DNA of 64,000 bases from Schmidtea polychroa (Eukaryota): positions 214,148,001 through 214,212,000 of the forward strand of contig CM097885.1 of the NCBI GenBank assembly GCA_044892525.1. Direction: 5' to 3'. The notes below the pieces were generated by a model. The model had not been told where the DNA came from, did not search any database, and saw nothing but the letters and a program-made list of their open reading frames with translations. Shown piece after piece: positions 10,660-45,338 of this stretch. The position numbers and the translations under genes were made by a program. Every line of letters begins with the position of its first letter. The stretch's first letter is position 1.

Positions 10660-10700
10660 TTTAATAAAAAAATATTGACAAAAAATGTATGAATAATAAA

Positions 10701-10702
<2 letters not shown>

Positions 10703-10763
<61 letters not shown>
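10703..10763. repeat. (AAT)n microsatellite
   Basis: Perfect AAT run. Confidence 0.97.
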
Positions 10764-10765
<2 letters not shown>

Positions 10766-19643: not shown

Positions 19644-19698
19644 ACTACTATACGAAAATTTTTATTTACAATTATTTACATTGATCATTCATCTTTAA

Positions 19699-20400: not shown

Positions 20401-20574
20401 TTTCTATAATATATACATAATTAATAACTGCGCTACAGTGCGGCTTATACTTATATATTTATATGTTATTTTATAATCAGGGTTACAGTCCCTTTCATAC
20501 TTTTACTGTACCATTAATTTTTTTGGTTGGGATACAGGTCCCGATTTTTATATTTTTTATCTTTCCTTTTATCC

Positions 20575-21612
20575 TTATACAAAGGTCTCTTCCTGGCCTA
20601 CATATCCCTCATCGCTTTCTACTGACGTTTGTAATTGGAGTGCGATGGGATCAAATGGGATGTAGTACCGGGGAATCTGCGCTCTAAGTTCTTGCACTTC
20701 GTCTCTTAGTGCTCTTGACACGTTAAGTTCCTCGTCCAACAGGTATGTTAGATACCTGGTTTCATCGTCTCTTACCTCTATCTGTTTTTCTAGCTCTTCC
20801 GCTTTTTCGCCGTTTTCCCATTTCTTGATCTCTATCTCCAGATTTTTAAGATTTTCGTTATACATTTTCCTTTCGTTTTCTAACTTTTTGTTTTTCCCCG
20901 CCAGTACCATATTTCTCTGCTCCAGAGCTCCTTGGTATCCGTTGACATCTCGTTCTAGTTCTGCGACCTTATTTACCAGTTCCACGAGTCGTCCTGACTG
21001 TTGAAGTATCAGTTCTTCCATTGCGGCATTCTCGTGCTCCCTTATGGAGATTTTCATGGCTAGATGTCTTTCAAATTCCATGGCTTTGGTCTGCCATGTT
21101 TGGCTTCGGGCCGCAATCTTTCTGAGCCGTTTCAGTTCTTCTCTTATGACCAGATTTTCCTCCCATTTGCCTTGTTCGCTTTCGTATTCTAATCTCATAG
21201 GCAATTCTTTCATTTCTTTTTTCATCTCTTTGTTCTGCCGCTTCCAGTTTCGGGCTTCTGCCAATAGGTGATTCATTTTCCTTCCTTCCTTTTGTTTTTC
21301 TGCTTCTCGTTTTGTGTTTTCGTCCGTCAATCGTTTCCGTGCTTCCTGCACTAACTGTTTTAAATAGTGGCTGTGTGCTTCTTGGCGAGTGTTTTCCAAT
21401 GATGCCCACTTAGAGGCTCTTTTGCATGCTTCTGCTTCGGCTCTTAAATTGTTTATTAACCACTGATATTTGTTATTCTCGTATTCCCTGGCCTCTTCGA
21501 GATGGTTGTGGGTCTGGTTCGTCAATTGTAACATTACTTTGACCCATTTTCCCTTATGGATTTTATTGACTTTGGTTTCGTGGTTTGGGGCTTCAGTTCC
21601 TTCTTGTGTCAT
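20575..21612 (-). CDS. 345-aa coiled-coil protein
   Basis: Long ATG ORF, almost entirely predicted helical coiled coil. Confidence 0.82.
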   Translation of the reverse strand: MTQEGTEAPNHETKVNKIHKGKWVKVMLQLTNQTHNHLEEAREYENNKYQWLINNLRAEAEACKRASKWASLENTRQEAHSHYLKQLVQEARKRLTDENTKREAEKQKEGRKMNHLLAEARNWKRQNKEMKKEMKELPMRLEYESEQGKWEENLVIREELKRLRKIAARSQTWQTKAMEFERHLAMKISIREHENAAMEELILQQSGRLVELVNKVAELERDVNGYQGALEQRNMVLAGKNKKLENERKMYNENLKNLEIEIKKWENGEKAEELEKQIEVRDDETRYLTYLLDEELNVSRALRDEVQELRAQIPRYYIPFDPIALQLQTSVESDEGYVGQEETFV

Positions 21613-21831
21613 CCTTGTCTAAATAACGATATCATTAACTTAACGTTGTACGCTTATATCTGGTTTATTATTTATTTATTTTTATAATTCGTTATAGGAG
21701 TTGTTTTAGGAGTTTTTCGCTTAAGTTTACCTTTGGTAGATTTGGGGGGAATTTGCTACACTACTATATAATATTTTACTGGATATATACGCCGATATTT
21801 ACAATTAGTATATACAAAATTATTCGTCTCC

Positions 21832-23220
21832 CTACTCAGTCCTACTCTTCCCATCACGCCTCACCGCTATTTTTATGTATATAGTGTCGTTTCTCGTCAT
21901 GTCTTCTACTTTCCGCTGTAGGATGAAATTTGGTGCTCCAGTTGCTGGTCCTTCTTCTTCCAAGGGCCTTTGGTAACATACGAGGTTTCCCGCTGTATGG
22001 AAACTCTGTTCGTGTATACTTTGATAGTTCATCATTGCAAGGTCTATTTTTGCTTTGAATGGCCATTCTATTAACTCGTCGTATGGCCCTTTGCACATCA
22101 AGAAGAATACTGAGAAATGCGTTCCGTATGCACTTCCATCCCCATTGGGGTATGCTTTCATTTTCATTTTATACCCGTTTTTCCATGAGTAGAATGCTGG
22201 ACTTAGTAATGTTGTATCCTTTCCATTTCTCGCTCTCTGCATCTTCTCTTTTATTCCCGTTATTTTCCATATGTACGGAGCCGTTGGTATTAATTCGTTG
22301 AGGTTTAATTCGCTTACTTTTTGATGTAGTTCTTTCACCATAATATTGCTAGTTTCTACTAGATCTGTCTGTATCTTTGTACTTGTTCTCGCCTCTTCAA
22401 ATGCTTCCTTTTCTTCCAATAGTTCTTTTACCAACGCTTTTAGCGAGACTATTTCTCTTTCTAAGTTTTCGGTTTTCCTTTCGTTTTCCTGTACAACCGT
22501 TGACCATATTTCCGCGTGTGTTGATACGTTTTCTGCTAGGTGTTGGGGTAATTCTCCTCGGTGTAATTGTTTCGGACATCCCCATTTTCCTAGCACACAC
22601 GTTATCTTTTTTCTTTCACACTCTTTTAGATGTTGAGCGAGTTTTATTACTCCGGGTTTATCGCATTTGTTGGGACATTCTCCTCTGAATTCTGCGCACA
22701 CTTTCTCCTCTTGTATGTTGTGATGTTGACTGATTAGTTTCTTCCAGGTGTCGTTTTCTCCGCAATACTCGCATTTCTCTAGTCTTTCTTCGCATCGACT
22801 TTGATGTTCTGCTTCTTCATTGACTTTAATCTCTTCTTGGCAACGTTTGCATTGACTGATTTTATACTCACATTGCTCCGTATGTTGCCTCACTTCCCAT
22901 ATCACTCCTCGCCAATTACATGGGGTGTTTTTACATCCTAGGTTTGCATTCAACATATCTTTTACAGCTGCTTTATCTTCGTTTGTATCTCCCAAACTTG
23001 TTATCATTGTTTCTTTGCATACTGGGCACCATTGTGGTCCCTTCTTTATTATCTCCTCTACACATTCTCTGCACATTCTGCATCCACATCTGGTTTGGTG
23101 AGGTTCTCTTAATAAGCTCTTGCATATTCCACACGTTACATGGTTGTGTATTCGAATTGTGGTGGACTTTCTGATTTGTTCAACAATTTCTCTGAATTCT
23201 TCTCGTTGTCGCTTATCCAT
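21832..23220 (-). CDS. TRAF-family protein (RING, TRAF zinc fingers, coiled coil, MATH), intronless, 462 aa
   Basis: RING CGIC...CGCRMCREC...CPVC; TRAF Zn fingers (C..NTPCNW...H...C); MATH motifs YIWKI, SPAFYS..NGYKMKMKAYPNGDG..GTHFSVF, GPYDELIEWPF. Confidence 0.95.
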   Translation of the reverse strand: MDKRQREEFREIVEQIRKSTTIRIHNHVTCGICKSLLREPHQTRCGCRMCRECVEEIIKKGPQWCPVCKETMITSLGDTNEDKAAVKDMLNANLGCKNTPCNWRGVIWEVRQHTEQCEYKISQCKRCQEEIKVNEEAEHQSRCEERLEKCEYCGENDTWKKLISQHHNIQEEKVCAEFRGECPNKCDKPGVIKLAQHLKECERKKITCVLGKWGCPKQLHRGELPQHLAENVSTHAEIWSTVVQENERKTENLEREIVSLKALVKELLEEKEAFEEARTSTKIQTDLVETSNIMVKELHQKVSELNLNELIPTAPYIWKITGIKEKMQRARNGKDTTLLSPAFYSWKNGYKMKMKAYPNGDGSAYGTHFSVFFLMCKGPYDELIEWPFKAKIDLAMMNYQSIHEQSFHTAGNLVCYQRPLEEEGPATGAPNFILQRKVEDMTRNDTIYIKIAVRRDGKSRTE

Positions 23221-23309
23221 TTCTATAATTATATATATACATATATTCGTTACTGGTACAGTTTCGTATTTTTATTTACATTTATTTACATTGCTATTTT
23301 AGGTTATAT

Positions 23310-23669
23310 TTATTGGCTGGAAGAGTCGGCCTCCTGTCCGCCCTCTTCCCTGTTGGTTAACCATTCTGACCAGTCTTCTATCTCCTCTCGCTCCATCTCT
23401 TCCGCGATTCTTATTAACTCCTCTTCTTGCACCTGGCTGTATCGTGATATTCGGTCTATCTCTCGCTGCATTTGTTCTATTTTCATTCGTTGGTCTTCGA
23501 TTATTCTTACATAATTGAAGCCTTTATTTAAACTTTCGACTAAGCTTCTTTGTACAGCGAGTCCTTGTTCCTGTAAATTCGAAATCACTTGAGTTAACAT
23601 TGCACATTGTTGTTTCCACATCTCCTCGGTTGTTGTACTGTGGTTTACTTCCTCGCCTATTCGCTCCAT
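23310..23669 (-). CDS. ~119-aa coiled-coil acidic protein (ORF track begins at a TTG at 23693; first ATG at 23669)
   Basis: Co-oriented ORF between the polyprotein and TRAF; heptad pattern. Confidence 0.65.
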   Translation of the reverse strand: MERIGEEVNHSTTTEEMWKQQCAMLTQVISNLQEQGLAVQRSLVESLNKGFNYVRIIEDQRMKIEQMQREIDRISRYSQVQEEELIRIAEEMEREEIEDWSEWLTNREEGGQEADSSSQ

Positions 23670-23837
23670 TCTTAATTTATATATACTTTTCAATCCTTAT
23701 CTAATTTTATTTTCATATTAATTATCCCCATCATTATATACTATTGATACCGCGCTTATATAAAAATATAGAATACTGTTATATAAATAAATATTTCCTA
23801 CTTACTTTTTACAATCTATATACAGTCATAATCCTTT

Positions 23838-26800
23838 CTATATACGTGAGCTTGGAGGGCGCTGAGCATTCCAGGCCTCCACCCACTGTTCCTGCTTGAT
23901 ATTACTTGGTCGTTTTACACGATGTTGAAAATTTCTTATTCTGGCCATTTCTAGTTCTCCGTGATGCCGTCTATCTTTGATTATTTTTATTGTCCCCCCC
24001 GTTATGATTAAAAAGGCCCCTGTTATTATTATGCCGCTGATCCACATCATCTGTTTTATGCTTATAATTTCCGCTTTTTCCTTGCTCGTTATTGTTGATA
24101 TTGCTTCTGTGCTTTTTAGATTACCGTCTTTGCCATTTCCTTTCATCATTCCTCGTATTCTTGCTATTTCCTCGTTCATACCTTCCTTTGCCATTTTTTG
24201 TATTTTCTCCATCTCCTCCTCGGATACATAATTGTCTTGATGTTTCTCACTGTTTTTCTTGCGTTTTCCTTGCTCATCTTTTTCATCATCGATTTTTCTT
24301 TTCTTTCCTCTTTTCCCAGGGTATCGTCGACATTCTCTCGCTGTATCTTTTCTCCAGATGCATATTGTGTATTCTTTTGGAGGTTGTTGCTGTATTACAT
24401 ATTGTAGACAGTCTTCACCCGGTCTTAATCTTGCGATGCAGACTTTGTGTTCTTTTCTTGGCTGGAGTTGCGTTATCACTACCTCACCTCCTTTTCCCAG
24501 GTGTACCTCCTTCCCTTTGACTTTCGTTATTCTCTTCCCTTCTCGATTTCGGTATGCTTCTTGTATTCTTACTTCCGTTATTGGTTCTGCATCTTCATTT
24601 TTTAACACTAGTCTCTGATAAGCTCTAGACATACATCTTCCTAATATACACCTTTCTTTTAAATCCCATTCTTCTTTTAGATCCCATTGCTGCTCTTGTA
24701 CTTGTTTTTTCTTTTCTTGTTTTAGTTCTTCCTCTTTGTTGTCCTTATTTTCCGTTTCTTTGGCTTCTTTTATCGTTCTCATTCCTCCCTGGGCTGTTAT
24801 CATTTCCACCATTGTTAGTACGAGTATCATTATCATCATATTTGTCTCCATTTCTTTGTTGGTAAAAAGTAGGCATACCCTCTGTTTTCCACTATTCGTC
24901 TTTTCTTCTTGCTTCATTCGGTTTCTCGGGTTATTTTCCTCTTTTTTCCTACTCGCGTCGTTATTTTCTTGATTATTCTCCTCTGATTTCTCTTTCTCTT
25001 TATTCCCGTTTCGACCTTTTTCATTATTATCGTCGTCTTTATCGTCTTTATCGTCTTTATCTCCCCCGCTATCGTTTAAAATGTCGTCCTCGACATTTAT
25101 ATCATTCAACAATCTGCGGTATGCCGTTAGCACTCTGTTTCTTGCTAATTTTGCTTCGAGTTCGAACTCCTTTCTGCCTGTTGCTACATGTCTCTTTCTA
25201 TTCCATTCTTTCACTAATTCTCTTAATTGTATCCGACGATGTTTCCCGATTCGCTTTTGTTCGTTTAGATTCTGCGTGAATTTGAGATCTTCCCTGTTTA
25301 ATACGATCATTATGATTTTCGGAGTTCCTCCTTTTGTTAGTGTATTTTTAACCATAGCATTTTCTCCGTTTTCGTAGAACTCATTTATGTTTATTGCATA
25401 TTTATTGCTTTGTGGTATTCTCCATGTTAGCAGCAACTTCATGGCTTCTAAGTTCATCCGTATCGTGTTCCATTGGAACTGTGACGTGTTTTTACAGATA
25501 TTTTCTGCCTCAGTTCTTGTAGCATTTTTACAAATGAATCTAATCATTTCCAAGTTTGGTTGTATTGTTGCCCAATCCATGGTAGAATTTCCTTCGTTTG
25601 ATATTTCGTCAAGTCTCGAACCTGATTGATGTAGTATATGTAATGTTTTCGGGTGTATATTTGTTATGGCTGCATACATCATTGCTGTTTCCCCTTGTTC
25701 ATTTTTTGCATTAGATTCTTCTCCGAAGTCTCTAAGGATTCTTATGATGGTTATTGCTCTGTTCTCTTTTGCTGCTAAAATGGCTTGTTGTAATGGTGTT
25801 CTTGAGTCTTTTGTTGGTAAGGTGAATGCTAGTGGTATAAATGTTTTTATTTTTCCTATGTCTAGATTTGTGGTCTGATCTCTTGCGTAGGTGTGTACTG
25901 TCTTGGTTATTTTTGCTAGTATCGCTTCATCGGATAGATCTTGCATTTCTTCAAAGAATACTTCTTTAGCCTTACGTACTACTATCTCTTGGTCGGAGTT
26001 TATTGTCTTTGGTTTACTTGTTGTTGCTATATCGGTTATTGGTTGCTCGACTTGTTCCTCAGACTTTCTTGTTTTTACTTTCTTCATTTTTATCTTTTTC
26101 TTGTTCGAACTGTTAATGCGTTCCTCTGCCGTTAGAACTTGAATAATACTTAGGTAGTTTTCTCGAATGTTGTTCATAGTTTCCATCATATGTAAAACAC
26201 TCACGGTGTCCCAAAATTTTACTTGTACTTTATCGGTAAATTGAGATATAGCTTTTTCGAAGTTGGTAATTCGTTTTCTGATTAGTTGTTCGTCTTTGTG
26301 ATTTGAGAATTTTATGCCTCGTTGTAGTAGTTGATTTGGAATTTCGAATAGGTGATGTCCTCTCATTGCTTCTCTCATCAAGGTATTTTCTCCTTTGGTA
26401 AATGTTTCGTTTATATCCACCATATAATCGTTTTTTATCGGGTTCCTCCATGCAATTAGTATTCCAGTAATTGTTGTTAATTTCTCTTTGATTGCAGTAA
26501 ATAGCCCGTCATACATGTTTCCTATCTCTCTATTATCCTCGTATGATATTAGATCTACTAAGATTATGAAGGCTTCCGTACTTTTCCCTTCGATTGCATG
26601 ATGTAATGCATTTTTCTGGTTGTGATCTTGTGTGGTTATCCTTGACCCAGTTTCAAGTAATGCGATGATAATATCTTTAGCTTTATCCCGATTGGCTGCT
26701 ATCATTAGTGGGGTGTAACCTTGGTTGTTTTCTTGATCTGTCGAAATGTTACAATCGCGAAATGCTTCAATTGTTTCTAATATCTGTTCGTTACTACCCA

Positions 26801-29800
26801 CCTTTAAAAGCTTGTGCAGGGGTGTGTCTCCGTAATGGTCTGTGATCGTGAATAATATAGGCCATTGACTTTTAACTACCCTGAGCAATGGGTGTGTTCT
26901 TTCTCGGTTTGCATAATTTTCGATCATTGTTAGCAGACCTCCCAATATCTCAAAATCTAATCTGTCTTCTGCCCATCCGGGCATTTTAACTTTTACTTCC
27001 TTTATGATTTTCTCGGCTTCTGATGGTTGTAACCCTAATCGATTACCTGTTGGTTCGTTTATTTGCTGTAACATGTTTATTCTATACGTTTGTGATCTTG
27101 TCGTTAGTGTACGTCCTTCTGGCTGACTGGTGGCGGTTTTCGGAATTGGCTTACATCGTGCAACATTTACATATATTGGCCTTGTAAAAGGGTTGTTCAC
27201 TAATCGTACTCTTACATTAGTTTCTCCGACGAATAGAATCTCATACGGCCCTTTACCGTTTCGTTGTAATTTTTTGGTGGTTCCTGGAATTAATTCTGGT
27301 GTTTCAATCATCACCCAATCGCCTGTTTGAAACGTATGCTGTTTGACGTTTTTCTTTCTATCATGTAACTCTTTGTAACTTTCTTGATAAAATTTTATAT
27401 TCAATCCTGCGGTTTCCCAGATTTCCTGCATTCTTTCCTTGAACTTGGTTACATAATCGTCTATTTCCATGTACTGTGATATCGGTGGCTGATATTCTAA
27501 ATCCATTGGCATATTGCATTCTCTGCCGTACATCAACTTGAACGGACTCATCTTTGTGGACGCGTGAATCGACATTCTGTAAGCCATGAGGCATAATTTT
27601 ATATATTCATCCCAGTCTCGTTGATGACGATCGACATAATTTGATAACATTTGAATCAGTGTTCCATTGAATCTTTCTGTCATACCATTAGTTTGTGGAT
27701 GGTACGGTGATGTTCTTAATTTTGCGATCTTGAAGTAGTTGGTGACTTCGCTCATTATTTCGCTCATGAAATTCGTTCCTTGATCCGTCAGTATTTGTTT
27801 CGGCGTTCCATATCGACAACATATTTCCTCTACCAATATTTTTGCGATTGTTCTTGCTTTCTGATCTGCCATTGCGAATGCTTCGGGGAATTTTGTCAAA
27901 TAATCTGTGATTACTAATATATATATATTTCCTCTATCTGATTCTGGTAGTGGACCGACTACGTCCATTGATATCATTGTCATTGGTTCTGCTGGCACTG
28001 GCATTGGCTTTAATGGTGCCTTCCATTTTGTTCCCGTGTTTTTTCTGGTTGCGCAAGTTATGCAATTTTTCACCCATTCCGTTACATCCTCGGTCAATGT
28101 AGGCCAAAAATATTTTTGTTTCATTCGTGCCAACGTCTTTTTAGATGACATATGTCCTCCGAGTCTTCCGTCATGGTATTGTGTTAGTAGATCTTTACGT
28201 CTATTCTCGGGAATGCACATCAGTCTTTTCTCGCCATCCATTATCAATAACCAATCTTTCTCGATAATATATCGATGTCGATGTTTATCCATATGCTCCT
28301 TCAATTTTTGATCTTTCTCATATACCTCTGCTTTCCCTGTTTTCACATATTCAATGATTTGCTTCAACTCTGTATCCTCTTGTTGGTCTTTCCGTAATTG
28401 GCAAAAATCTAAATCTTCTGCTACCATCAGACATATTCGTTGCATTTCGTGATCTACTAAATCTGGAAAGATAAATCTGGACATACAATCCGCATTGGCA
28501 TTCGCTCTTCCCGCTTTGAATTTTATGAACGGTGAATATTCTTGTAACTGCATTGCCCATCGCATCAATCTACTTGAAGCTTCTTTGTGTTGACCAAGCC
28601 ATACTAATGGTTGATGATCCGTGGTGATACATATTTCGTGTCCCCATAACAAATATCGAAAATGTTTAATTGCTTGTATGATTGCTAACGCTTCTCTCTC
28701 GGTTACGGAATAGTTTTTCTCGTGCTTTTTAAACGTTCTACTGTAGTATCCAATCACTCTTTCTTTTCCTTCTTCATCCAGTTGTCCTAATATTGCTCCG
28801 GCTGCATATCCACTTGCATCTGTTGCTAATAGGAACGGTTTCTTGAAATCAGGGTGTACTAGTATTGGGGCTTCAATTAATTTATCTCGCAATGTCTCAA
28901 ACGCTTTTTGTTGTTCTGCACCCCAAATAAATGAAATATCCTTTTTCACTAATTCCTGTATTGGTTTCGCAATACCTGCATAGTTTTTGATGAATTTTCG
29001 ATAATATCCGCATAATCCGAGAAATTCTTGAACTTGGGTGACAGTTTTTGGTGCTGGACATGTTTTTATTTTTTCTATGTTCCTTGGATCTGGTTCTTTG
29101 CCTTTTGCTGACACTATGTGTCCTAAGAACGTAACCTTTTCTTTTGCCCAATCACATTTGGATGGTTTAAGTTTCAGTTTCCATTGTCGTAATCGAACGA
29201 ACACATTTCTGATATCTTCCAAATGTTGTTCGAATGTTGCTGAATATATTAATAAATCATCAATATATACCATACACTGCTTGATCCCGTGTGTGACAAA
29301 ATTCATACATCTCTGGAATGATGCTGGGGCGTTGGTCAGTCCGAACGGCATTTTCCTGAATTGGTATAGATCTCGGCCCAATGTGAATGCTGTTTTCTCT
29401 TTGTCTTCCTCCTTGACTTTGATCTGCCAATATCCGCTTTTCAGATCTAAAGATGTAAAATATGCGGCCCCCTGTAACATAAGTAACATCTCATTGATGT
29501 CTGGTAACGGGTATGTGTCTCTTTTTGTTACTGCATTTAATTTCCGATAATCGATACAGAATCTCTGAGTACCGTCTTTTTTCTTCACCATGACTACTGG
29601 AAATTGCCATGGTGAGCAACTTGGTTCGATCACTTGTGCATCTAGCATTTTTTGTACTTCTGCTTCGGCTATCTCTTTTTGCTTCTCTGCTAGTTTGTAT
29701 GGGCGTAGTGCGATTGGAGTTTCGTCTATTAATGGTATTGCGTGTAATGTAACATCGCATGCTCCCAAATCTAAATCCGAAATTGCGAATATATCTTTAT

Positions 29801-32800
29801 ATTCTATCAATAATTGTTGAAGTCTCTCCTTCTCTTTTTCCGTTAGCAAGGTGCTGTCAATTATCCATAATTCGTCAGCTTTCGTTGTTTCGTTGATGAT
29901 TTTTGGTAATTCGATGTCTATCATGGGTGTCAATCTACCCAATCTTTCATTTTCATATATGATCTTGTCTTCTTCCTCAAAATTTGTGATGTTAATTGGT
30001 ATTTCCCCGTCTTCATTTATTGTTATTATTTCTCTTGCTAATGGTAATTCTCGTCGTTTTTCGAATGATTTGCTTGGCTCAAAAATGACTTCTCCTTCCA
30101 TTCCTGCATCCACTTTTATTTGACATATCATCTGTGATTTTGCGGGTACAATTATTTTCTCCGGGCATCTAATTATTGCGTTCATCTTGCATATTCTACC
30201 CATTTTGTCTTTTAGACACATTGTTGTTAAATCGATTACTACTTCCTTAAATAATTCCGGCATTAAATCCGTTCCGATTATACATGGTTCACTCAGTTTG
30301 GGTATCACCGCTAGATACGTTTCAATTTCGTTATCCTGATATCGTAACGTAGTCCACCATCTTCCTACTACGTCTACGGTTTCTTTACTGCATGCAATAA
30401 TATGGATAGTTGTTTGTTCGATATCCTTCCAACATTTACTGGGTATTTGGTTTATTGCTATTGCTGATACGTTTGCTCCGGTATCTATCATGGCGCTTGT
30501 CTCTTTCCCGTTGATTTGGATCATGACTGTTACTGCCGCACCTCCTGGTGAACTCATCACTGCTATCGTTCTTACGTCGTCCGCTTGGTCTACACTTTTC
30601 GTTCTTCGGGTCGGCATATAGTTCATTCCTGGTTGACTTGGTAACTGTGGATACATATTTTGTGTCATGGTCAAAGCTGTTTGTTGTCCAACGATATCTG
30701 GTGGTATGTAACTTCCGTTGGCTATCCAGGTATTTGTTTTTTCTTTCTCCCAATATGGTGCTGTTTCTATTGGCTTTTCATTCGGGTTTCTACTTGGATA
30801 TGGGTATTTGTCATTCCCGTTGTCGTCATCATCACTATCGCTGCTGTTTGATCGATTCCTAAATCTGTCTAAGAATTTTGGTTTGTTCTTTTTCAGTTGC
30901 GTCCTTGTTGCTTCATCATACATCGTTTTCCGAAATCGTCTACCGACTTCCTCGTCAGTTCCTTTTATTTTTGTCAGTATTTTGATCAATCGTTTTATTC
31001 TGTGTATGTCTTTAGAATGACCGTGCAACACCATTGTTTTCGCCAAAAATGGTAGAAAGCCTACTATCAATTTCCAATTTACCTTCTTTTCTCTCTTATA
31101 GATATCAAAACACGCTAACATTTGAGTTAATATTACTCTGACGATCTGAATAATTAAGATGATTCCCAATATTCCTGCCATCATTTGACCGAACACTAGA
31201 AATCTTCCCCACATTGCTTTCATCATGTTTGACGTGGCTTGTTGAAAATGATCAGGTGACAATAATAGTTCGTAATTGGGGCCTGACTGGAAATTCGTTC
31301 CCCCAGTTATGGTAACCATATTCGATAGAATGGATTCCCGTCTTGCTGGGAATAATACGTTTAATCGTGCCGTTTCTAAATCCTCCGGTGAGTACATACC
31401 TGCTTTTGACACATCAATTGGTTTGAAATCTTGTTCTGTTGCGAGTTCTATTAGTCCAAACTTTTTAGGTTCTTGTACTTCGGTTTTTACCGGTAACATT
31501 ATCCATTTCCCATCGGGTTTTTCATATAACGGTCCGTATGCATTTGAACAGTTAAAGGTGTTCGGGTAAAATCCAATTGGGTTCATTATTCGAGTGACGG
31601 GTTGAACGAATCTGTTTCGCCCTTTGTAACTAATTTCTAACTCGTTTGCACATTTCCCTGGTGGAATCGTGGGCTTTCTTGGCAGTCGCGCAAATGTCTT
31701 GGTACATGCATATGTATACATTACCTCTCCCACCATTCTACCAAAATGTCCATCCGGTAACGGGAGTGATGGCATTGTGTTATCTGGGTGTGTTATTGCG
31801 ATGGCTAATTTTGTTTTTAGTATCTCTTTATTCAATGAACAGTCATTTTGTATAAGATCGTAATACACTTTTTGCATTGTCGTTTGTCCTCGGTGAAATA
31901 AAAAGTCCATTTTGTTATTGGCGTACAGGTACAATTTTACGTCCTCTGTTGCTACCTTTCCCACTGCTCGGTCTATTACTTGCCTGGACATGTAGATACC
32001 TGCGTAGTTCGTCCGGTATACTATGCTGTCACATTTGGTGGTCTCTTTTTCTCTAATGAATCTCATGCCGATATCTGGGTCATCTGTAATTAATGCCGTT
32101 GGTGTTTTTTGGGTTGTGAGTCTCTTTTCTTTGGGGGATGGCGGAACTGGTTTCCCATTTCGCATCCTTACGTTTCCATTCTCTTCATCGTCATCCTCGT
32201 TTTCGTAAATTTCTCCTTTTACTTCATTGAATAGAGCACTTTTTAACAATTGGAGTCGGCATTTTTGGGTGTTAGCTTCATATATTATAGTCGAAATTCC
32301 CGTTCTACACACGTTTTCCGTAGCTCTGCATGCTGGGTTGGTTTTCATTTGATAGTTGTTCGCGTCGAATTGTGCTTCGTATTCCTTCAACTCCACTGTG
32401 TAGGACTCAATTACTACTACTCCCGATATCACCTCTCCTCTGATCGTATATGTGCCTCCGTTACATGATCCATCAGTTGATTTTACTCGTCCAGCGACAT
32501 AGATACTTTCTGTCTTGATCATTCCGCTTTGTCCGTGTATTGTTACTCCATCCCTGATTCTCATTGCTCCGGTTCTAAAAAGCTCTTTACAGTCTTCCCG
32601 TTGTATAGGTACTATTTCTTTATCTAATCCCGGTAATATAAGGGTTGAATATGAGTATTGTCCACAGTAATATGCCAACACTTTCTTTGATACTACGCAT
32701 TCTCTAGCTTGCGTTCTAATGAAATCTGATTCTTGGTATACGTGATAGGAGACTTTCTTCTTTACTATATCTAATTTATTCGGAGACGCCTGTCTACATT

Positions 32801-35800
32801 CCTCTATATCTCTCAGGGAGTATCTTTCTCCTATTATCGAATTGTCACAGTCGTAAATAGTAAATCCCGCGGCTCCACTGGTGCAGAGCATCCATATCAT
32901 CATGGTCATCATTAGTGAATTAATCGACGCTTTTCTGCTGGCTGGGTCTTTCAATGGCAATTCCCATTCTAGCTCATGTAGTAACTTCTTCAACCGAATT
33001 TGCATTGATCTCTCTTGCTCGTTTTTTCGTGGCGCTTGTATGAGTCTTTTCCACCCACCGGCGCGGATGATATGTGGTTCGATTGTATTTTCAATGATTG
33101 TGACGGTCATTTCTACATGATTTGCGAATTGTTTGTTAGGTATTTTCCTTGCTGCTAATCCCATCAAATTGTACATTAGATACGTTAATACTACTAAATG
33201 ATGTTCGTCGTCGTTTGCGTTTAAAGTTAATTGTTCAATTACTCTTCTTGTCTCTTCCCAATCGGTTTTAGTGGTTTTTGTCTTCTCTTTGATTAATTTC
33301 GGAATTATTCCGGATATTGTATTCCATAGTTGTCTGGCGTCTACGCTTGCTACTTTTCGTTGCCATAACCGTCGCAATTGTGGGTTCGTTATTATTAGCA
33401 TATCTTTTACTAGCTCTCGTATCCATTTTTCGCCTCTTTCGATAGTTGGCTGGGCCTCTTTTAGATCCCACACTATTTTATCCAGTTTCTCTAATCTGAC
33501 TTGTCCTTGTTCTTGTTTCAGTTGTTCTCTAGTTTTAAATTCCGGTTTTTCTCCTTGCTTCTTGGGTCTCCCTTTTGCCCGTTTTTCCATCATTGTTCCG
33601 GCTTCCCTTGTATTTTCATAATTCGGGTTTCTCTCGTTATCCGTTCTTGGCAATGAGCTATCGTTATTTCTTAGCCATTCGTTCCATTCGTCTATTATTT
33701 TGTCCGTTTGACCTTCTGGTGTTGCTTTCGTTGGTCCTTTCTGTCGTTGGAATTGTTCGTCGGTTTCGGTTTCTGTTGTATTATCGATAATCTCCTCGAT
33801 ACTCAGCTTATTTGGCTGCTGATAGCTAGTTGACGGTTGGCTTGTTGTCCATATTTCGGCTCCTGTCGGCCATCTTACCAGAATTGGTGATCTTTCTCCA
33901 GCTCCTTCATCGCTGTCTTCCAATATAATTTCCTCGATTTCCTCGGTTTCATTCGTTTTACTTGCCACTTTGTTAGGGCTTGGTGTACTCAAGCTACCTT
34001 TCGTAGGTTTACTGGATGTGTTCTTCCTTTTAATCGGTTTTCCCAATGTTTCTACCATTGTCAATACATTGATCTCCCCCAATCTCATGGGTGTTATTCC
34101 GACATCTGCATTATCATCCAACGATTTTCCGAATAGTTGTAGGTGAAACGGAGTTTCGTATGCTAATTTCTTTTTTAACTCTCTGATCTTTGTTGTTGGA
34201 TGTACTTCTGTATCCTCAATGCTTTTGTCGGGATACTTGACTCGGATACGATACCTTTCCTGGGTATCTTGTGCCCATTCTTGGTTTCTCCATTTCCTAA
34301 TAATTTGTTCTAGCTGTTCTGGGTACCATTCGTTATATTGTCTGTATTCCTCAATCGCTTTCGCCATTTCTCTTAGATTGTGGATATTCTCTGATGTCTT
34401 TAGGATGATGTTAGCCAATGCTATTACTTGACGTTTTTGATTTTTTGTTCCCGTTGCTAAGATATCACCTAATTGTTTATATCTTTCCTTCTCTTCTCGT
34501 TCTCGAGCTTCCATCGCTTCTTCGCTATCCATATCGGCATATTCGCGTTCTTTCTTTCTCATCGCATGAATATGTCTGGTTTCCGTTTCACTTTCTGATG
34601 TAACATCCGTTTCGCTTCCGTCGTCCGATGTCGATTCTATTTCGTCCTCTTCGTATTTTGGAGGTTCATCTTCCTCTTCTTCTGATTCACTTTCTATCTC
34701 ACCAATGTCTGTTTCCACGAAAATCCCTTTCCTGATTTTCCATTCTTTGTTTTCCGCATTCCACGTCCTTTCCCATGGGGTTCGTCTGCAGGATCTCACA
34801 CTTAGTTTCTTTATTTTTCCTTGAAGCTCTTTTTCTTTTAACCACTGTTGATGAATTTCAATTATCTCTACTGATTTTTGATATAGCGTTTTCATCCTGT
34901 CTCGTATTTCTTTCTGGTATGTTATATCTCTTGTTCGGAATTCGTCCATGGGCAATATTCTGATGATTTGATGATTATCCCACATTCCCATTTCGCTTAG
35001 CGAGGTGTCGTCTTCGGCCCGTAATATTATTTTATCGTACATCATGACTACGTCATCTATCATCCCGTCGCTACTCTCGCTTCGTACTTTTTCCGTTATC
35101 TCTTGGTTTATCTTGGTTACTAAGTCATCTACCGTACTCTGATTACTCATCTTTATTCGTCGTTTCTCCTCGTTTGGTAACCATATGGTTATTTCTAATT
35201 TCTGCGGTTGCGTTTCTTTCAACCTGCCATATTTGTGGATCAAATTTATGGTTCTCCAATCGCTCATCCTGAGCAATTCTGTATCTCGTAATCGGCTCAT
35301 TAGCTCATGCATGTCTGGAGTTCGTCTTGCTATGAGTAAATCCCAGTTATCTTCGACTTGTTCTTGAATTTGTTTGATTAATTTATCTAGATTTCGTCGC
35401 AAGGTGCATTGTTTTATTTGTTCCAGCTTCAGCTTGATGTTAAAATCGTATTCGGCCTTGGCGTCTTTAGCCCATTCGTGAATATTTGCTGGTTGTTTCT
35501 CTTTATACAATTTCAATATTTGAGTTTCTCCTGGCCAGATCAATGCATCTATTAGGTGCATGTCTGGTTTGATTTGTTCTCCTTGATATTGATACAGATA
35601 TTCTTTCTTTCTCGAGCTGCCCAAATGTTCTCTTATCCAATCGAAAAGGTCGTCTGTGACTGCATTTTTTATCCATATTCTCTCGAGTCCTTTACTCGTT
35701 CCGATTTTTATTACATAGCGTGTTGTCTCCGCTTGTTTCATTTTTTCCATATACTTCTTTATTATCACTTTTTCCTCGTTTGGTATTAGGTCTTTTTCGT

Positions 35801-38273
35801 TTCTTTCTAGTTTCATTATCTTTTGTATGAAGCGTCGGTATGGTATGATGTCAATGAATTCCTGGTTTCTTACCACCACTGGAAGTATTTCCTTTACTTG
35901 TTTTATCGCTTCTTCTCTTTCTTTTCTCAATTTCATTTCGATATTCTCGTCTTCGCTTTCGCTTGTCACGTCGCTTTCTCTTTCATCTTCATCTGCTCCA
36001 ATCTTTTCTCTTAGTTGGTCGATATTTTCATTTAACTGTAACATTTCTCCACCAAGGCTACTCACATAATCCTCATCGTCATCTGTTGACAACACCTTCT
36101 TTGTTGTCCTCATCATATTAATTCGTAAATTTCTCATTCTTGGTACTTTCTTTAACTTGTTGTTCTCGAGTATCGTTAGTTCCTCTGAGTCTAATTCTCG
36201 TATCATATTATGCTTTAGATGATTAATCTGTTTTTCATTTTCGTTATTTTCTGCTTCTGCTTCTGTTTTTGTTTGCTCATTTTCTCTTTCGATTTTATCT
36301 TTTATCTTTTTCCAAAATATTTTCTGAATTCTCTGATTTCCTTTTAGTGGTGTTGTTGAATTTTCCTTTTTTGCTGCTGTAATTGTTTCTTTCGGTTTCT
36401 CTGGTTCGCTCATAGGTACAACTCTTGGATTTTTACCGTAATTGTAACAATATTGCTCCTTTATCTCCTTTACCATCCTCATCATATTTATTCGTAGTGG
36501 TTGTTCTTGTCGCTGCTGAATTCGCTCTCTTTTTATCCTTTCTTCTTCAGCTTGTAGTCTTTGCCATTCTTGTGCATGTTGTTGCACTTCATAATTGTTA
36601 AGATTCTCGGTGCTTCTCATCATGCGTATATTCTGGGTTGGTTGTGGTACTTGCTCTTGTCTCGGTCTCATCATTTGTTGCATCATCTGCTTCATTTGTG
36701 AAATTTCTTGCATCACATTCATTTGCTTTCCCTCACTAGGATTACTTTGTCGTTGCGGATTTGGTGCATAGTTATTATTTCGCTGTGGTGGTCGTTGCTG
36801 TTGGCTCCTTTCTCGACAGTCTCTTGAGATATGACCTAGTTGCCCGCAGTTAAAACATCCTCTTGATTGGCATATATTTTCCGTGTGTCCTCGTCGTCCA
36901 CACCTATTGCAATTTGCGTTTCGGTAACAATCTCTATCCCAATGTCCTGGTTTACCGCATGTTCGGCATTGTTTGTTATCGTTTATATTTCGTCGATTAT
37001 TAAAGTTGTTCCCATTGTTTGAGTTGTTGCGTTCACTGTTATTCCCGTTTGATCGTCCTTGTGGTGGTTTGAAAATTTGATGCGCACCTGGTATAAACTG
37101 ATTCATCTTTGGTTCATGATTATTGTTATCTCCATTTTCCGTTTTCACCGCTGCTGTTGCGATTCTTCCCTCCTCTTGCATGACGTTCATTTGTGCTGGG
37201 AGGTGTAGTTCGCATCTTGTGGCCCAATCTATGGCTTCTTCTAGTGTTTTACACATTTGACATCCCACCGAGGCCCTTACCTCTTCTCGGCGTAGTCCTT
37301 CTATGAAGTAACCCATTAAATTTTCCTCCGGCAAGTTTCCGTTCATGGCCTTCTTTGCCAATCTTCGCAATTCACTTGCGTATAACGTAATTGACTCGTT
37401 TGCTCTTTGTTTTCTACTTGCCAGTTCACCTAACGCTTGATTTATTGGTTTGCTGGCTCCGAATGTTTTTCTCAAAAATGTTTTGATGTTTTCCCAATTG
37501 TCTAATTTCGTATTTCTTTCTTTTGCTTCCAGATATACTTCGAGTGCGCTATCGCACAAAAACAGAGGCATTCGTTTACTAATTGCTTCGGGTGTCCATC
37601 CACACACATCGATATAGACTTCAAAGTTGGTTATGAACGTTGCCAACTTGTTCGCATTCCCGTTGAATGGTTCGCCTCTAAATTTTTCCTTATACTCGTC
37701 AGTTTTTACCACATTCATCTTAATTGGTTCTTGAAACTCTATTATTTCTTTTAAATTTTCCAGCGATGTAGCTAAGCTATGGACGGATAATTCTTCTGTT
37801 GACCCGGTTAGGTTGTTGGTTATATCGGATAGACTTTCTCTACTTCTAGATCGGCTGGGCGTATGTCCGGCTGTGGGGTTTTCTTGATCGTATATCGGTG
37901 TTTTGTGGGGTCTTTTTGCTCCTTGTGATATTCCTCTCTGCTGCCTAAATGATCGTCCTCTTTTGAGTTGATCTAATTCGTCTCCTGAAAATAATACGTC
38001 TCCTGGCTTACTTGAAGATCTAAGGTTGGGTTTATCCGTGATTTTCCTTTTACTCTTTTCTGTCTTTTCACGTGGATTTTCTACGGTTAGCGTCTGCTGA
38101 ATTGGTCGAGTTCGGTTTTGATATTGTCTTCCTTTGTGCGGGTTCTGAATTGCTTTTCCTGGGTTGTTTGTATATTCTCTGGATTCCTCTTGAGCTGGTT
38201 CTGAATTGACTTGGTTGGATGGATGTCTACAATGAAAATATGATATCGTGTTGCCTTTGCTTACACGAATCAA
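23838..38273 (-). CDS. Single Gag-Ubl-Bcl2-Env-PR-RT-RH-IN-Ank-TM polyprotein (4,811 open codons; first in-frame ATG at 37718)
   Basis: 14.4-kb frame with no stop; recognisable CCHC, DTG, YIDD, TDAS, HHCC, D-D-E, GPY and ankyrin motifs. Confidence 0.97.
   Translation of the reverse strand: [4811 protein letters not shown]
25540..26845 (-). other. Two clusters of ankyrin repeats (within polyprotein)
   Basis: [67 protein letters not shown]. Confidence 0.88.
27130..28420 (-). other. Integrase (HHCC, DDE, GPY/F) (within polyprotein)
   Basis: YHDGRLGGH...CITC; MDVVGPL...TDQGTNF...ERFNGTL; GPYEI. Confidence 0.97.
28480..29720 (-). other. Reverse transcriptase and RNase H (within polyprotein)
   Basis: RPYKL, [76 protein letters not shown]. 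Confidence 0.98.
30190..30555 (-). other. Aspartic protease (within polyprotein)
   Basis: [23 protein letters not shown] ... CIIGTDLM. Confidence 0.95.
31020..32918 (-). other. Env-like glycoprotein (chuvirus G / gB-type class III fusogen): signal peptide, ~550-aa ectodomain, TM (within polyprotein)
   Basis: Hydrophobic [18 protein letters not shown] then FTIYDC; 14 ectodomain Cys; [53 protein letters not shown]. Confidence 0.8.
33040..33440 (-). other. Bcl-2-like domain (within polyprotein)
   Basis: [16 protein letters not shown] resembles BH2 (HLEPWIQENGGWDTFV) with Bcl-2-like helix spacing upstream; BH1 NWGR is not retained. Confidence 0.55.
34050..35725 (-). other. Three ubiquitin-like domains (~35500-35725, ~34945-35205, ~34050-34260; within polyprotein)
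   Basis: Best copy [46 protein letters not shown] aligns by eye to ubiquitin [44 protein letters not shown]. Confidence 0.6.
36815..37718 (-). other. Gag capsid-like domain plus three CCHC zinc knuckles (within polyprotein)
   Basis: [16 protein letters not shown]...Q..[18 protein letters not shown]...FIEGL; [42 protein letters not shown]. Confidence 0.92.
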
Positions 38274-38939
38274 TCATTCCTTTTTGCCACATTCAAGCAC
38301 AGACACCGTTTTAGGGCCTCTGTTATATTTTTCTTCATTTCCCCTCATACACTTCTTCGCAGAATATAATTACCCATCAACCCATATTTTTCGTCGATTT
38401 TAAATTATCTATTTGGGGTAGTAACAATTATCTATATAGTCGTATAAATTATCTATAGTTAGCATTTATAATATCGATAGGTCGTTGTCAGTTACTGCCT
38501 ATTACCTCCCATATTTTCTTAATCCTTTTACGCGGTTCCGCTATTTTACTTAATCTTTCATCTCTGTTTCCCCTTATTTGGTTCTACTCTGTAACCAAAA
38601 CAAAATTCGTTTAACCGGTTTAAACCAAAAAAATTCTGTAGAACTTTGTCTACTTGTCTGGGATCCCTTTTTTAATTAATTAATCACCTTCCTCTTTTAC
38701 TCATCACTTATTCTTTATTTTCATTATCTCTTTAATTCATTTTCCTTTTCCGTTTCTCTTTCCCACTGAAAAAAATTTCATTATTACTTCTCACGAGCTC
38801 GTTTAATCCTTTCTAAATTCAAATACCATATTTCAAACTCACTTTGCTTCTAGCTAGCTTTAATATTCCATCTCACTAGTAATTTAAATGTTATCAACTT
38901 GTAGCTTGAATGCTATCTCACTATTACTTTAGGCCTTTA

Positions 38940-39615
38940 CGACTGGCTGGCACTTTTCAACAGCTCAATCTTCTTCTCCTGACCGGTTGGACTATTCAAC
39001 AACTCGATCTTACGACTGGCTGGCACTATTCAACAGCTCAATCTTCTTCATCTCCGAACTGGCTGGACTTTTCACAGCTCAGTTTTAATTTTTCCTGACC
39101 GGCTGGACTTTTCAACAGCTCGGCCTTAATATCTCCGACTGGCTGGACTTTTCACAGCTCAGTTTTAATTTTTCCTGACCGGCTGGACTTTTCAACAGCT
39201 CGGCCTTAATATCTCCGACTGGCTGGACTTTTCACAGCTCAGTTTTAATTTTTCCTGACCGGCTGGACTTTTCAACAGCTCGGCCTTAATATCTCCGACT
39301 GGCTGGACTTTTCACAGCTCAGTTTTAATTTTTCCTGACCGGCTGGACTTTTCAACAGCTCGGCCTTAATATCTCCGACTGGCTGGACTTTTCACAGCTC
39401 AGTTTTAATTTTTCCTGACCGGCTGGACTTTTCAACAGCTCGGCCTTAATATCTCCGACTGGCTGGACTTTTCACAGCTCAGTTTTAATTTTTCCTGACC
39501 GGCTGGACTTTTCAACAGCTCGGCCTTAATATCTCCGACTGGCTGGACTTTTCACAGCTCAGTTTTAATTTTTCCTGACCGGCTGGACTTTTCAACAGCT
39601 CGGCCTTAATATCTC
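38940..39615. repeat. Tandem array in the element leader: about 7 perfect 80-bp units (two alternating 40-bp subunits, 39061-39615) plus 3 degenerate subunits
   Basis: GGCTGGACTTTTCACAGCTCAGTTTTAATTTTTCCTGACC alternating with GGCTGGACTTTTCAACAGCTCGGCCTTAATATCTCCGACT. Confidence 0.97.
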
Positions 39616-40197
39616 TAAACTCTGCATGCTTCCGTTCCTTTTTGTCTTTATTCTATACTGTCATCTTCCTATTTTTACTTTTATTTGTCGACTTAATCTG
39701 TACCGCTTTGGAAGGTTTCCCCTTTCCCCCCTTGCTTAAAACGCAAAACGATCGCATTGATCCATTTCTGCATTGGTATGGTGATCAGCCATACCGCAGA
39801 AACTTTTCAATATTCGCGATGGTACCTCGCCTTACATCTCTTACTCGGGGTGATCGGTTATCCCCTCCCGAACGGTTTTTCAATTATCGTACCTCCCGAA
39901 GGTGGCTCGGTTTATTCCCCCTTTAATCTTATGTTGGGACTAGCTCCACTTTATGTACTCGATTTAAATTTTAAAATACCCTTTCTTCATGGTGAAAATT
40001 ATGATACAACAGATCAAATTATAGCTTCGCAAAATGAAATAAACACACCAAAATGATTTATTGATTATTCAGTCCATGCTACATATGATATATGATACCC
40101 TTATTAAAATATTAATGAATCAAATCAAAAAAAATTAAAATATTTTAGTTTAATTGTTCAACCATCCAATTTCTCTCACCGAGCGACGATCACGTAC

Positions 40198-40677
40198 CTA
40201 ACTGAAGTAGATTGTGTGCTTCTCTTTTATTACACATGTGCACATAGAACACCGGATTAAACTGGCGGCGCATTCGTCACAATGGCTAAGGTGCCCACAA
40301 GGTAGAATCAGAATTTTGACAGGTCGCATCTTGCAAATGTTACAAGTTCTCAAGGCCGCTGCTTTCTCTACTATTGATGTTCGTATCCGCTGAGACAGAG
40401 TTTTGACTCGTTCGCGTATCCTCACATATTCGATGTTCAGCGCTGGGTCGTCGAGACGTTGCTGAAACCATTGGTAATGAATCGACAAGTCGGTATCGGT
40501 ATTCGTTGATCCTAATCTGTCGGTTAGAAAGTTTTGTTTGGATATCAGCGGTGCGTCGTGGCTTTGTTGTTCTAGCAGTTCTATTTGTTTCAGTTTTTCC
40601 CTTAATGTTTTTATTGAATCATTTTCTATTTCGACGAACCGGCTTAGCTGTTGTAGATGTTGTCTAGCGTCTGACAT
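40198..40677 (-). CDS. 159-aa coiled-coil plus IAP-type C-terminal RING protein (no BIR)
   Basis: CNICKMRPVKILILPCGHLSHCDECAASLIRCSMCTCVIKEKHTIYFS*; RING at the extreme C-terminus ending in an aromatic tail as in IAPs. Confidence 0.88.
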   Translation of the reverse strand: MSDARQHLQQLSRFVEIENDSIKTLREKLKQIELLEQQSHDAPLISKQNFLTDRLGSTNTDTDLSIHYQWFQQRLDDPALNIEYVRIRERVKTLSQRIRTSIVEKAAALRTCNICKMRPVKILILPCGHLSHCDECAASLIRCSMCTCVIKEKHTIYFS

Positions 40678-41129
40678 ATCTAAATGAATGTGTTGTTATT
40701 ATTTGTTCTTACTAGTATTAGCAATAATATTATTACGTTGTATTTAATATTCGTTTCTCTTTTATTTGTTATTGTTTCTAGCTTTCGTATTTTATTTAGT
40801 CTTTTTAACAATCCCCGTCGTATTTTTGACTTTAATCTTTTAATTTTATTGTCATTACTTTCTTTTGTCTCCCCTTTTTAATTTAATAAATTAAAATTAA
40901 ACAAAGTAACTAATTCCCGTTTCCTTCTCTCATCATACTCTATCATATACATTCATACTCATTTAGGTTCATCTTTATTCATACATGCTCTATTTTCAGT
41001 TCGTATCATCATTCTATTGTATTACGATATCGATTCGTTTCAGTCCCGATTCCATTTTTAATCATAATTAATTAAATTGTTAATCTAACACATCATAACA
41101 CAATAATAGGTAATCAACAAATCGAATTC

Positions 41130-41147
41130 ATCCCGGCTGAGCCCCCA
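41130..41147 (-). promoter_or_regulatory. Primer-binding site, tRNA-Pro type, 7 nt inside the 5' LTR end
   Basis: Minus strand TGGGGGCTCAGCCGGGAT; 16/18 identical to the MLV tRNA-Pro PBS TGGGGGCTCGTCCGGGAT. Confidence 0.88.
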
Positions 41148-41694
41148 AAAATCGTGTTGGCGTATGTGGGGGAAAAAAAAATATATAGGCATGATTATCA
41201 TACACATCGGGTGTCATTATTCTACTCAGATCATTCCCTCACGCACTCCAAATGATCATTCGCATATTCCCACATATGAGCCCGTGGTGATGTTCCACGT
41301 TGGTACTGCTCACACGGGTTGGGAAGAGTTAGCAGGTGAGCCCCTGCCTTAGGACTACTCCTAACCCTTTCTCGGTTCGGGTTCTACGGTGCCATAGAAG
41401 GTCTTACCCATTCTTTACGCATCATTCGGTCCGACCCTGGTCCAAAGGGTACGACATTTAAGTTTCTACTATATTTTCGTGATCCTTCTCTCATGCAATT
41501 CAACCGTAGCAAGTCATACATACAATTTACACAATCAAAGAAAAATCGAACAGTTATATTAGAACGGAACATCAAACTACATTCAATATTGTTTAAATAA
41601 ATACAAAAAAACATTAAAGATTAGTCACGAGATAACGTCGCTTCTTCGAGTTCGTTAGTAATAGCAGGGGAATCGAGACCCGAGAGAGAATTGG

Positions 41695-44811: not shown

Positions 44812-44834
44812 ATATATAGTATTTTTCGTCCAAT
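44812..44834 (-). promoter_or_regulatory. Putative LTR core promoter (ATTGG/CCAAT box plus TATA); copy at 18250..18272
   Basis: CCTGATTGGACGAAAAATACTATATAT; same blocks conserved in the diverged LTR at 57422..57458 (CCTGATTGGA...GACGAAAATACTATAAAT). Confidence 0.6.
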
Positions 44835-45338
44835 CAGGACGCTACCTGCTTGTATTTTTACTATTTATTATTATTTTTCTGTTTTTTATTATAATATATT
44901 AGATTTTTAATGACTTAACTTATTTCTTATTATTATTTTATTTATTTTCCTATTTTTATTATTTTCCTCCTATTTTTCTTGTAGGTTTATTGCTACTTTA
45001 TTGTAATATAATTTTTTTGTTTTAATTAGACTTAAAGATAGTTTTATTTTTTATTTATTTCTTAAATTTCTCTTTTATTTGTTGTCACTTTTTTACTTAT
45101 TCTATTCTATTTCATCTGCTGGGTCCTAAATCGCTTTATTTCCAAATCTCAAGGGGTTTATTGGATTTTATTTAGTTTGTTTACTTATTCTTATTCTTTT
45201 ATTGATATTTTATTGTTCCTTTTTGATTTATTAGCGAGAATTTGATGGTACTTTATTTTTTTATTTTATTTCGTTTATTTTTCAAAGATTACTTTTCTAT
45301 TCGCTCCAGTTTTCGAAACTCCACGTTTTAGCCCAACA

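Follow-up and report, generated by a model that had tools for sequence, protein, structure and literature searches.

How does a retroelement that carries Gag, Env and Pol in one giant open reading frame (ORF) release its individual proteins from a single chain? The question is raised by a 64,000-nucleotide stretch of Schmidtea polychroa DNA (the window; GenBank assembly GCA_044892525.1, contig CM097885.1, positions 214,148,001 to 214,212,000 of the forward strand), in which a Burro-type Ty3/gypsy element with long terminal repeats (LTRs) occupies 30,746 bp of the minus strand, from 14593 to 45338. An original prediction, made from the DNA letters, listed twelve copies of a short motif at the domain junctions of the polyprotein, and held that the protease of the element, together with signal peptidase, cuts the chain there into about 14 products. 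The analysis described here partly supports this interpretation, and suggests, with a probability of roughly 0.8, that the motif marks sites of the element's own protease. Both the type of element and the type of specificity are known; what was not found in print is the map of cuts and the tethering logic considered below, since a literature search, which left supplements outside its reach, returned no processing map for Burro and no tethering model.

The polyprotein is read from the following frame:

23838 to 38273, minus strand: single ORF of 4,811 codons, stop to stop.

Its order is leader, Gag, accessory region, Env, protease (PR), dUTPase-like domain, reverse transcriptase (RT), RNase H (RH), integrase (IN), ankyrin repeats and a second membrane protein. 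Gag is recognized as Retrotrans_gag with three CCHC knuckles (at amino acids (aa) 436, 455 and 473), Env as a Monjiviricetes-type fusion glycoprotein (Pfam PF24664, E 8.7e-74), and the ankyrin repeats as Ank_2 (E 6.6e-20), while both a catalytic DTG and a retropepsin fold were found in the PR region. All twelve motifs are present and in frame, each within 6 nt of its predicted place. The motif would represent the P2-P1/P1'-P2' core recognized by the dimeric aspartic protease of the element, with the bond in the middle (RIN/MM; slashes denote scissile bonds). Its alphabet is narrow, with hydrophobic residues at P2 and P2' (Ile, Met or Val; Met or Leu), Asn, Cys, His, Ala or Arg at P1, and mostly polar residues at P3 and P3'; the presence of hydrophobic P2 and P2' in 12 of 12 sites holds by construction. 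For comparison, 20 relatives that carry this type of Env and/or cover polyprotein junctions were taken from 32 matches plus 150 listed matches, and three closer ones, P0198 (40% over aa 17-1221), P0199 and P0059, were aligned pairwise. The sites, with their counterparts, are as follows:

37704 to 37721, minus strand: KMN-VVK, aa 185-190; not kept in P0198, P0199 or P0059.
37176 to 37193, minus strand: QMN/VMQ between capsid (CA) and nucleocapsid (NC), predicted cut after aa 363; QIT/LMQ, QIA/TMQ and QVA/VLA in the three close relatives.
36708 to 36725, minus strand: QMN/VMQ after NC, predicted cut after aa 519; QVN/VMQ in P0198, QIN/VMQ in P0059.
36615 to 36632, minus strand: NIR/MMR, predicted cut after aa 550; NIH/MMQ in P0198.
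36477 to 36494, minus strand: RIN/MMR, predicted cut after aa 596; RIN/MLR in P0198.
36108 to 36125, minus strand: RIN/MMR, predicted cut after aa 719; RIN/MLR in P0198.
34557 to 34574, minus strand: HIH/AMR, predicted cut after aa 1236; leave-one-out rank 7 of 4,795.
30552 to 30569, minus strand: TIA/VMS between Env tail and PR, predicted cut after aa 2571; the best supported site.
30171 to 30197, minus strand: junction of PR and dUTPase-like domain, overlapping candidates RIC/KMN (after aa 2695) and KMN/AII (after aa 2698).
28422 to 28439, minus strand: RIC/LMV between RH and IN, predicted cut after aa 3281; RIC/ALQ in P0035, SMN/MLT in P0046.
27066 to 27083, minus strand: RIN/MLQ between IN and ankyrin repeats, predicted cut after aa 3733; moderately supported, with QIS/MLQ (P0035), LIG/MMV (P0003) and MVG/MIY (P0004) as counterparts after IN.
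24864 to 24881, minus strand: RVC/LLF, predicted cut after aa 4467, ten residues ahead of the second signal peptide.

Eight of these predicted sites, TIA/VM included, are supported by relatives. HIH/AMR and RVC/LLF have no homologue among the sequences compared, and both are plausible as protease sites; the module that follows HIH/AMR is missing in P0198.

A first possibility to be weighed is that such repeats arose as a side effect of local DNA duplication, or of an A-rich, Met-rich composition, and that their match to junctions was picked post hoc. The core pattern occurs 19 times in the ORF rather than 12, against 7.25 in 2,000 global shuffles (none reaches 19) and 7.8 or 7.6 in composition-keeping local shuffles (1 and 0 of 2,000 reach the observed count), figures that argue against composition as the source but that are inflated, the pattern having been written from its own matches. 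When no pattern is imposed, three 7-mers, QMNVMQE, LRINMMR and DVTSESE, are found repeated exactly in the protein, against 0.03 in 300 local shuffles. Two of the three are predicted sites, whose codons differ at synonymous positions, contrary to what duplication would suggest; the third is unrelated to the motif and indicates that internal duplication has happened. With held-out relatives at 25-45% identity also showing the signal (see below), this explanation is largely refuted, and we regard it as extremely improbable.

The seven additional matches consist of one at aa 598, which overlaps a listed site, and six that lie within domains (aa 905, 1009, 1401, 2378, 3689 and 3870). The motif is not equally frequent inside domains, since 13 matches fall outside folded or membrane segments where 1.33 are expected from composition, and 6 fall inside where 6.35 are expected, in a comparison that is partly circular because the domain limits were set by eye when the sites were already known. 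In leave-one-out ranking among 4,795 positions, the IN/ankyrin site RIN/ML comes first. The best unlisted matches to the six-residue profile built from the twelve sites are at aa 2304, 2348 and 1858, in the luminal Env ectodomain, and at aa 3560, in the IN core. Two further candidates were rejected: SIN-SL, which precedes the Env signal and has similar residues in P0003 and P0004, is not evident in most of 16 relatives and corresponds to the start of the signal helix, and EIN-VL (INVL, aa 1401) looks, on inspection by eye, like the final strand in a ubiquitin-like module. An unsupervised motif search on the windows cut from the relatives was noisy (log-likelihood 101, against 79-82 in four shuffles run with fewer starts) and was not counted.

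Conservation in the Gag region bears on a second explanation, in which the motifs would be structural, that is, hydrophobic edge strands or helix caps kept at domain borders for folding; PR would leave most of them uncut, and the accessory region would persist in large pieces. Across the five Gag-region sites, P0198 keeps 22 of 30 residues, as opposed to 65 of 150 in the flanks (Fisher p 0.002), and the changes seen in relatives remain within the alphabet of the motif. The site at aa 719 is a conserved island, with flanks in P0198 identical at only 5 of 15 and 1 of 15 positions, and similar sites are found downstream of the knuckles in distant relatives. All five lie in low-complexity Gag linkers, and three have no domain edge within 30-107 residues, which is difficult to reconcile with a structural role; matches that fall inside domains, such as INVL at aa 1401, are in its favor, as is the foamy virus Pol, which is cut only once and leaves PR and RT fused (PMC6669543).

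The first of the twelve motifs had been proposed as a cut at the start of CA, and this part of the prediction is probably wrong. None of the three close relatives conserves KMNVV, whose Met is encoded by the first AUG in the ORF; the motif therefore probably represents the initiator Met and not a cut site. The codons upstream form the following segment:

37719 to 38273, minus strand: open leader of 185 codons, with no in-frame AUG; the first Met is aa 186.

The leader is open beyond chance (the probability of no stop being 2e-5), and in contigs from sequencing runs both of its two listed variants are synonymous and pairs of indels preserve the frame; a cut at KMNVV may therefore occur if the leader is translated. 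P0198, P0199 and P0059 are likewise open upstream of CA, with N-M-A at that place. Over 23800-38500 as a whole, contigs from four runs fill all 30 bins at identities from under 90% to more than 99%, a spread that reflects many diverged copies. None of the 40 listed variants, out of more than 4,100, falls inside a site, and 25 of the 40 are synonymous.

Conservation among families was explored in 51 windows cut from the relatives at fixed anchors (before each catalytic Asp, and after the RNase H end, the last knuckle and IN). The profile gave a mean best score of 2.38, against 0.55 in shuffled windows and 0.88 in random windows from the same relatives' proteins (0 of 300 reaching it in each case), and without the closest relative the score was 2.11 (reached by 0 and 1 of 300, respectively). 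The signal is carried by the PR (31 windows) and NC (10 windows) classes. At offsets 25-28 before the catalytic Asp, the simple pattern [IVML]xx[IVML] is present in 20 of 31 PR domains, while shuffles give a mean of 5.4 and a maximum of 13 (0 of 2,000 reach 20) and four other offset bands contain it in 4-5 of the 31 each; with one PR counted per protein, 12 of 17 first PR domains carry it. The band was picked after the profile test, and the related proteins are not independent. Both the junction profile and this PR-start rule recover the signal in held-out relatives. In relatives that have two to four PR domains in tandem, several of these domains are preceded by the site, and the recurrence at a fixed distance of a P2 residue that would lie outside the mature PR argues against a structural role. 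Such tandem arrangements, with two to four retropepsin domains per polyprotein located both between Env and RT and downstream of IN, were observed in P0003, P0004, P0035, P0036, P0037, P0038 and P0041, P0037 having four in succession. It is of note that P0039, a clear element polyprotein, is labeled as a hypothetical protein of a Flavobacteriaceae metagenome-assembled genome, probably through bin contamination.

The start of PR is where the map can be compared with a known enzyme. A cut at TIA/VM would make the catalytic Asp residue 26, a retropepsin distance, and in a gapless alignment residue 12 of the query corresponds to residue 11 of HIV-1 PR, which places the predicted N-terminus one residue before that of the HIV-1 enzyme. 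The TIA-VM segment is unstructured, with no confident structure in the model, a further point against its being an edge strand or a cap. At the other end of PR the earlier claim survives in part: a tight junction with the dUTPase-like domain does exist at KMNAI, but the cut may fall in another register, since P0059, the only relative to cover this junction, has RICMLKSE for RICKMNAI, keeping RIC/xx, three residues upstream of KMN/AI, and losing MNAI. In the model, the PR fold extends to approximately aa 2694-2696 and the following domain begins near aa 2697:

29892 to 30185, minus strand: dUTPase-like domain, aa about 2697-2794.

AIIR forms its first strand, and a weak alignment to ASPRV1 (E 0.56) places RIC in the last strand region of PR, two observations that the structural explanation can claim; set against the Gag linkers, the tandem domains and the unstructured TIA-VM, they leave that explanation improbable. 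For the PR end itself, a cut at RIC/KM has slightly less than even chances, one at KMN/AI is rather unlikely, and a junction left uncut is somewhat less likely still. The closest structural matches of PR are Ddi1 and the proteases of EIAV and XMRV, and the dUTPase-like fold aligns with the dUTPase of Epstein-Barr virus (Z 10.1, root-mean-square deviation 3.7, 94 aligned positions, model residues 146-243). Two relatives, P0012 (VCAL) and P0050 (VCAI), do have the motif between the dUTPase-like domain and RT.

A third explanation accepts the sites as real but attributes the cuts to a host protease, or reads the Met-rich sites as internal translation starts. Many sites do have Met at P1' or P2', and KMNVV is probably a start; at the homologous sites of relatives, however, Leu, Val, Thr or Ser stands in place of those Met residues, and the register is the same as that of LTR-element proteases. 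Caspases require Asp at P1 and furin recognizes polybasic sequences, and the sites display neither pattern. Host cleavage or internal initiation is consequently considered very unlikely. Cleavage by the element's own protease agrees instead with the specificity of characterized relatives. The Ty1 sites PTIN/NVH, HLIA/AVK and ARAH/NVS have mainly Val or Ile at P2 and P2' and hydrophilic residues at P1 and P1' (PMC6952103), ASPRV1 prefers hydrophobic P2 and P2' (PMC11402058), and foamy virus sites resemble those of yeast elements (PMC3185560); hydrophobic P2/P2', a polar or small P1 and the retropepsin fold are shared by the proteases of Ty1, ASPRV1, foamy viruses and Ty3 and by the element described here. 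Its sites differ in that a hydrophobic residue (Met, Val, Leu or Ala) usually occupies P1', which in Ty1 is hydrophilic on average, and in their unusual uniformity and richness in Met; up to 11 are predicted, as opposed to three mapped experimentally in Ty1.

The remaining cuts would be made by host signal peptidase at two internal signal peptides, which, like the membrane helices, were called from hydropathy and homology:

32865 to 32942, minus strand: internal Env signal peptide; signal peptidase is predicted to cut after G1803.
31128 to 31184, minus strand: Env transmembrane (TM) helix, aa 2364-2382, hydropathy 2.53.
23841 to 24872, minus strand: second signal peptide and a 317-aa type I membrane protein, predicted cut after A4494, TM at aa 4739-4757.

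Ahead of the point where mature Env begins, the window protein and all 16 relatives inspected have a hydrophobic stretch. If the helix at 2364-2382 is the only TM of Env, all listed sites are predicted to be cytoplasmic. In the proposed working, a single chain would be read from Met186, and signal peptidase would act on it during translation to yield three membrane-held precursors: Gag with the ubiquitin-like (Ubl) modules and the Bcl-2-like part, with the Env signal as C-terminal anchor; Env, with PR, dUTPase-like domain, RT, RH, IN and ankyrin repeats on its cytoplasmic tail; and the type I membrane protein. The protease would then free the soluble products, namely CA (186-363), NC (364-519), three spacers of 31, 46 and 123 aa (520-550, 551-596 and 597-719), accessory proteins (720-1236 and 1237-1803), PR (2572-2695/8), dUTPase-like-RT-RH (to 3281), IN (3282-3733) and the ankyrin protein (3734-4467), leaving Env (1804-2571), a 4468-4494 segment and the 4495-4811 membrane protein. 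Eleven protease cuts plus two by signal peptidase would give 14 pieces, in line with the number first proposed; the eight relative-backed cuts plus the same two would give 11. The idea of protease sites behind that number is thus upheld by the held-out relatives, the position of TIA/VM relative to HIV-1 PR and the specificities of Ty1 and ASPRV1, the KMNVV cut and the register of the PR end being the parts that are not.

Several results weigh against this reading. The leave-one-out ranks of TIAVM (40), KMNAI (50) and RVCLL (22) are low, and the first-place ranks lean on near-identical partner sites kept in training. The RH (7 windows) and IN (3 windows) classes are not significant alone, being reached by 63 and 14 of 300 shuffles and by 33 and 138 of 300 random windows, respectively, and 11 of the 31 PR domains in relatives have no site at offsets 25-28. 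In 28 other gypsy-like polyproteins, the best profile match fell at 25-28 in only 3 of 21 PR windows, which suggests either a weighting peculiar to this group or poor quality of those records. Retention of hydrophobic P2 and P2' is not in itself significant (5 of 6, against 13 of 25 other linker pairs, p 0.06-0.18). No motif was found between the dUTPase-like domain and RT (about 29850-29920), which leaves the RT start unmarked, and as retroviral proteases generally follow no strict consensus (PMC3185560), true sites may be missed. Lastly, a second hydrophobic stretch follows the Env TM (aa 2398-2416, hydropathy 1.41); if it crosses the membrane, Pol would flip into the lumen.

The order of these domains evokes the question of how such a particle could be assembled. 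A tentative answer, on balance somewhat doubtful, is that single-ORF GAG-ENV-POL elements assemble unlike Gag-Pol retroelements: signal peptidase would part Gag from Pol, with Gag held on the Env signal peptide and Pol packaged through the Env tail and the second signal anchor, in a 1:1:1 ratio, and the uniform motif would serve as a release code. Errantiviruses of GAG-ENV-POL order with an Env of the herpes simplex virus/gB type have been reported in Nematoda, Bryozoa and Platyhelminthes, and share with the window element both this gene order and an ectodomain located between signal peptide and TM; the available part of that account does not describe polyprotein cleavage by PR, a membrane protein after IN, or tandem PR domains (PMC13524379). 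In foamy viruses Pol is made apart from Gag, and PR-RT stays uncut (PMC6669543). A parallel in logic is offered by Flaviviridae, such as hepatitis C virus, whose core ends in the E1 signal peptide: one chain is processed by signal peptidase and other proteases, and the capsid precursor is anchored by an envelope signal (PMC5402940, PMC7601889). These viruses and their proteases are unrelated to the element, in which the Env tail would, in addition, carry the enzymes into particles. In the window (about 32865-33506, minus strand) and in four relatives, a GGW motif of the Bcl-2-like domain precedes mature Env by 46-76 residues, a proximity by which the Env signal could act as tail anchor of that domain. 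A signal-like and TM-like pair also follows IN in the window and in six of six relatives examined (P0003, P0004, P0012, P0035, P0039 and P0046), and this predicted pair marks a common position for a membrane protein that looks unrelated; in the window, the C-terminal membrane protein received no Pfam assignment and no usable ESM Atlas match.

The element itself is bounded by the following repeats:

14593 to 18776, minus strand: 3' LTR, 4,184 bp, TGT...ACA.
41155 to 45338, minus strand: 5' LTR, 4,184 bp.

The two LTRs differ by one mismatch in 4,184, and a 4-bp target duplication, TTGG, flanks them on the outside. Burro/GYPSM1 elements of planarians exceed 30 kb and have LTRs and one giant ORF (4,873 aa in Burro1); planarian genomes contain thousands of copies of them (PMC6431247), and BURRO1 RNA rises upon loss of SMEDWI-2, that is, when PIWI control fails (PMC8532177). 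The window element has the size of this type (over 30 kb, with multi-kb LTRs) and its ORF (near 4,800-5,100 aa, Gag-Env-PR-RT-RH-IN), and shares with the published description a three-CCHC Gag, an in-frame Env between gag and pol, a dUTPase-like domain between PR and RT, ankyrin repeats and MATH/TRAF; putative Ubl and BCL2-like parts would be a further point of agreement. TRAF is inside the polyprotein in Burro1 and in a separate downstream ORF here, and BIR, part of the Burro description, was not found by Pfam in the window element. The available text presents the Burro polyprotein as a domain list and gives no processing map (PMC6431247). Related loci were not found in viral or metagenome contigs.

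The identity of the accessory region is less clear. Its Pfam matches are weak (PI3K_rbd 0.0056, ubiquitin 0.064, Bcl-2 0.094), ESM Atlas ubiquitin leads for the Ubl region score 0.76-0.77, all below 0.8, a search of PDB sequences with the Bcl-2-like part gave no matches, and a single-sequence model of aa 1192-1796 (pLDDT 39.7) was unusable. Three helical-plus-ubiquitin-like repeats can be discerned by eye at 34060-35910 (minus strand), the third of which, preceded by HIH/AM, is missing in P0198. Downstream of the polyprotein, the TRAF-like ORF (21832-23271, minus strand) has a RING, a TRAF zinc finger and a MATH domain (Pfam E 2.8e-25), and four further accessory ORFs on the same strand (19008-19661, 19699-20403, 20575-21618 and 23310-23696; 217, 234, 347 and 128 codons) are coiled-coil-like or hydrophobic, with no Pfam family at the curated cut-off. 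The 5' untranslated region contains an 80-bp tandem repeat of approximately nine copies (38937-39697), and a probable primer-binding site, which we take to be like that for tRNA-Pro, lies just inside the 5' LTR at about 41130-41147 (minus strand). Other ORFs include one of 165 codons in the 5' region (40198-40695, minus strand) and one of 254 codons inside each LTR (15133-15897 and 41695-42459). Outside the element, the window holds two N gaps (2765-2935 and 56010-56213), a (TA)n-centred palindrome (58823-59046) and short-period repeats (3487-3701 and 10627-10835).

If the elements do assemble by this membrane-held route, a single release code would detach the capsid, the enzymes and the proteins that modulate the host, and the relatives with tandem PR domains would represent variations on the scheme. 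The predicted residue-level map of cuts supplies product boundaries and neo-N-termini for proteomics, as well as a specificity with which host substrates could be predicted. The tethered-precursor arrangement, if true, would explain how enzymes are packaged without a Gag-Pol fusion when Env sits between Gag and Pol.

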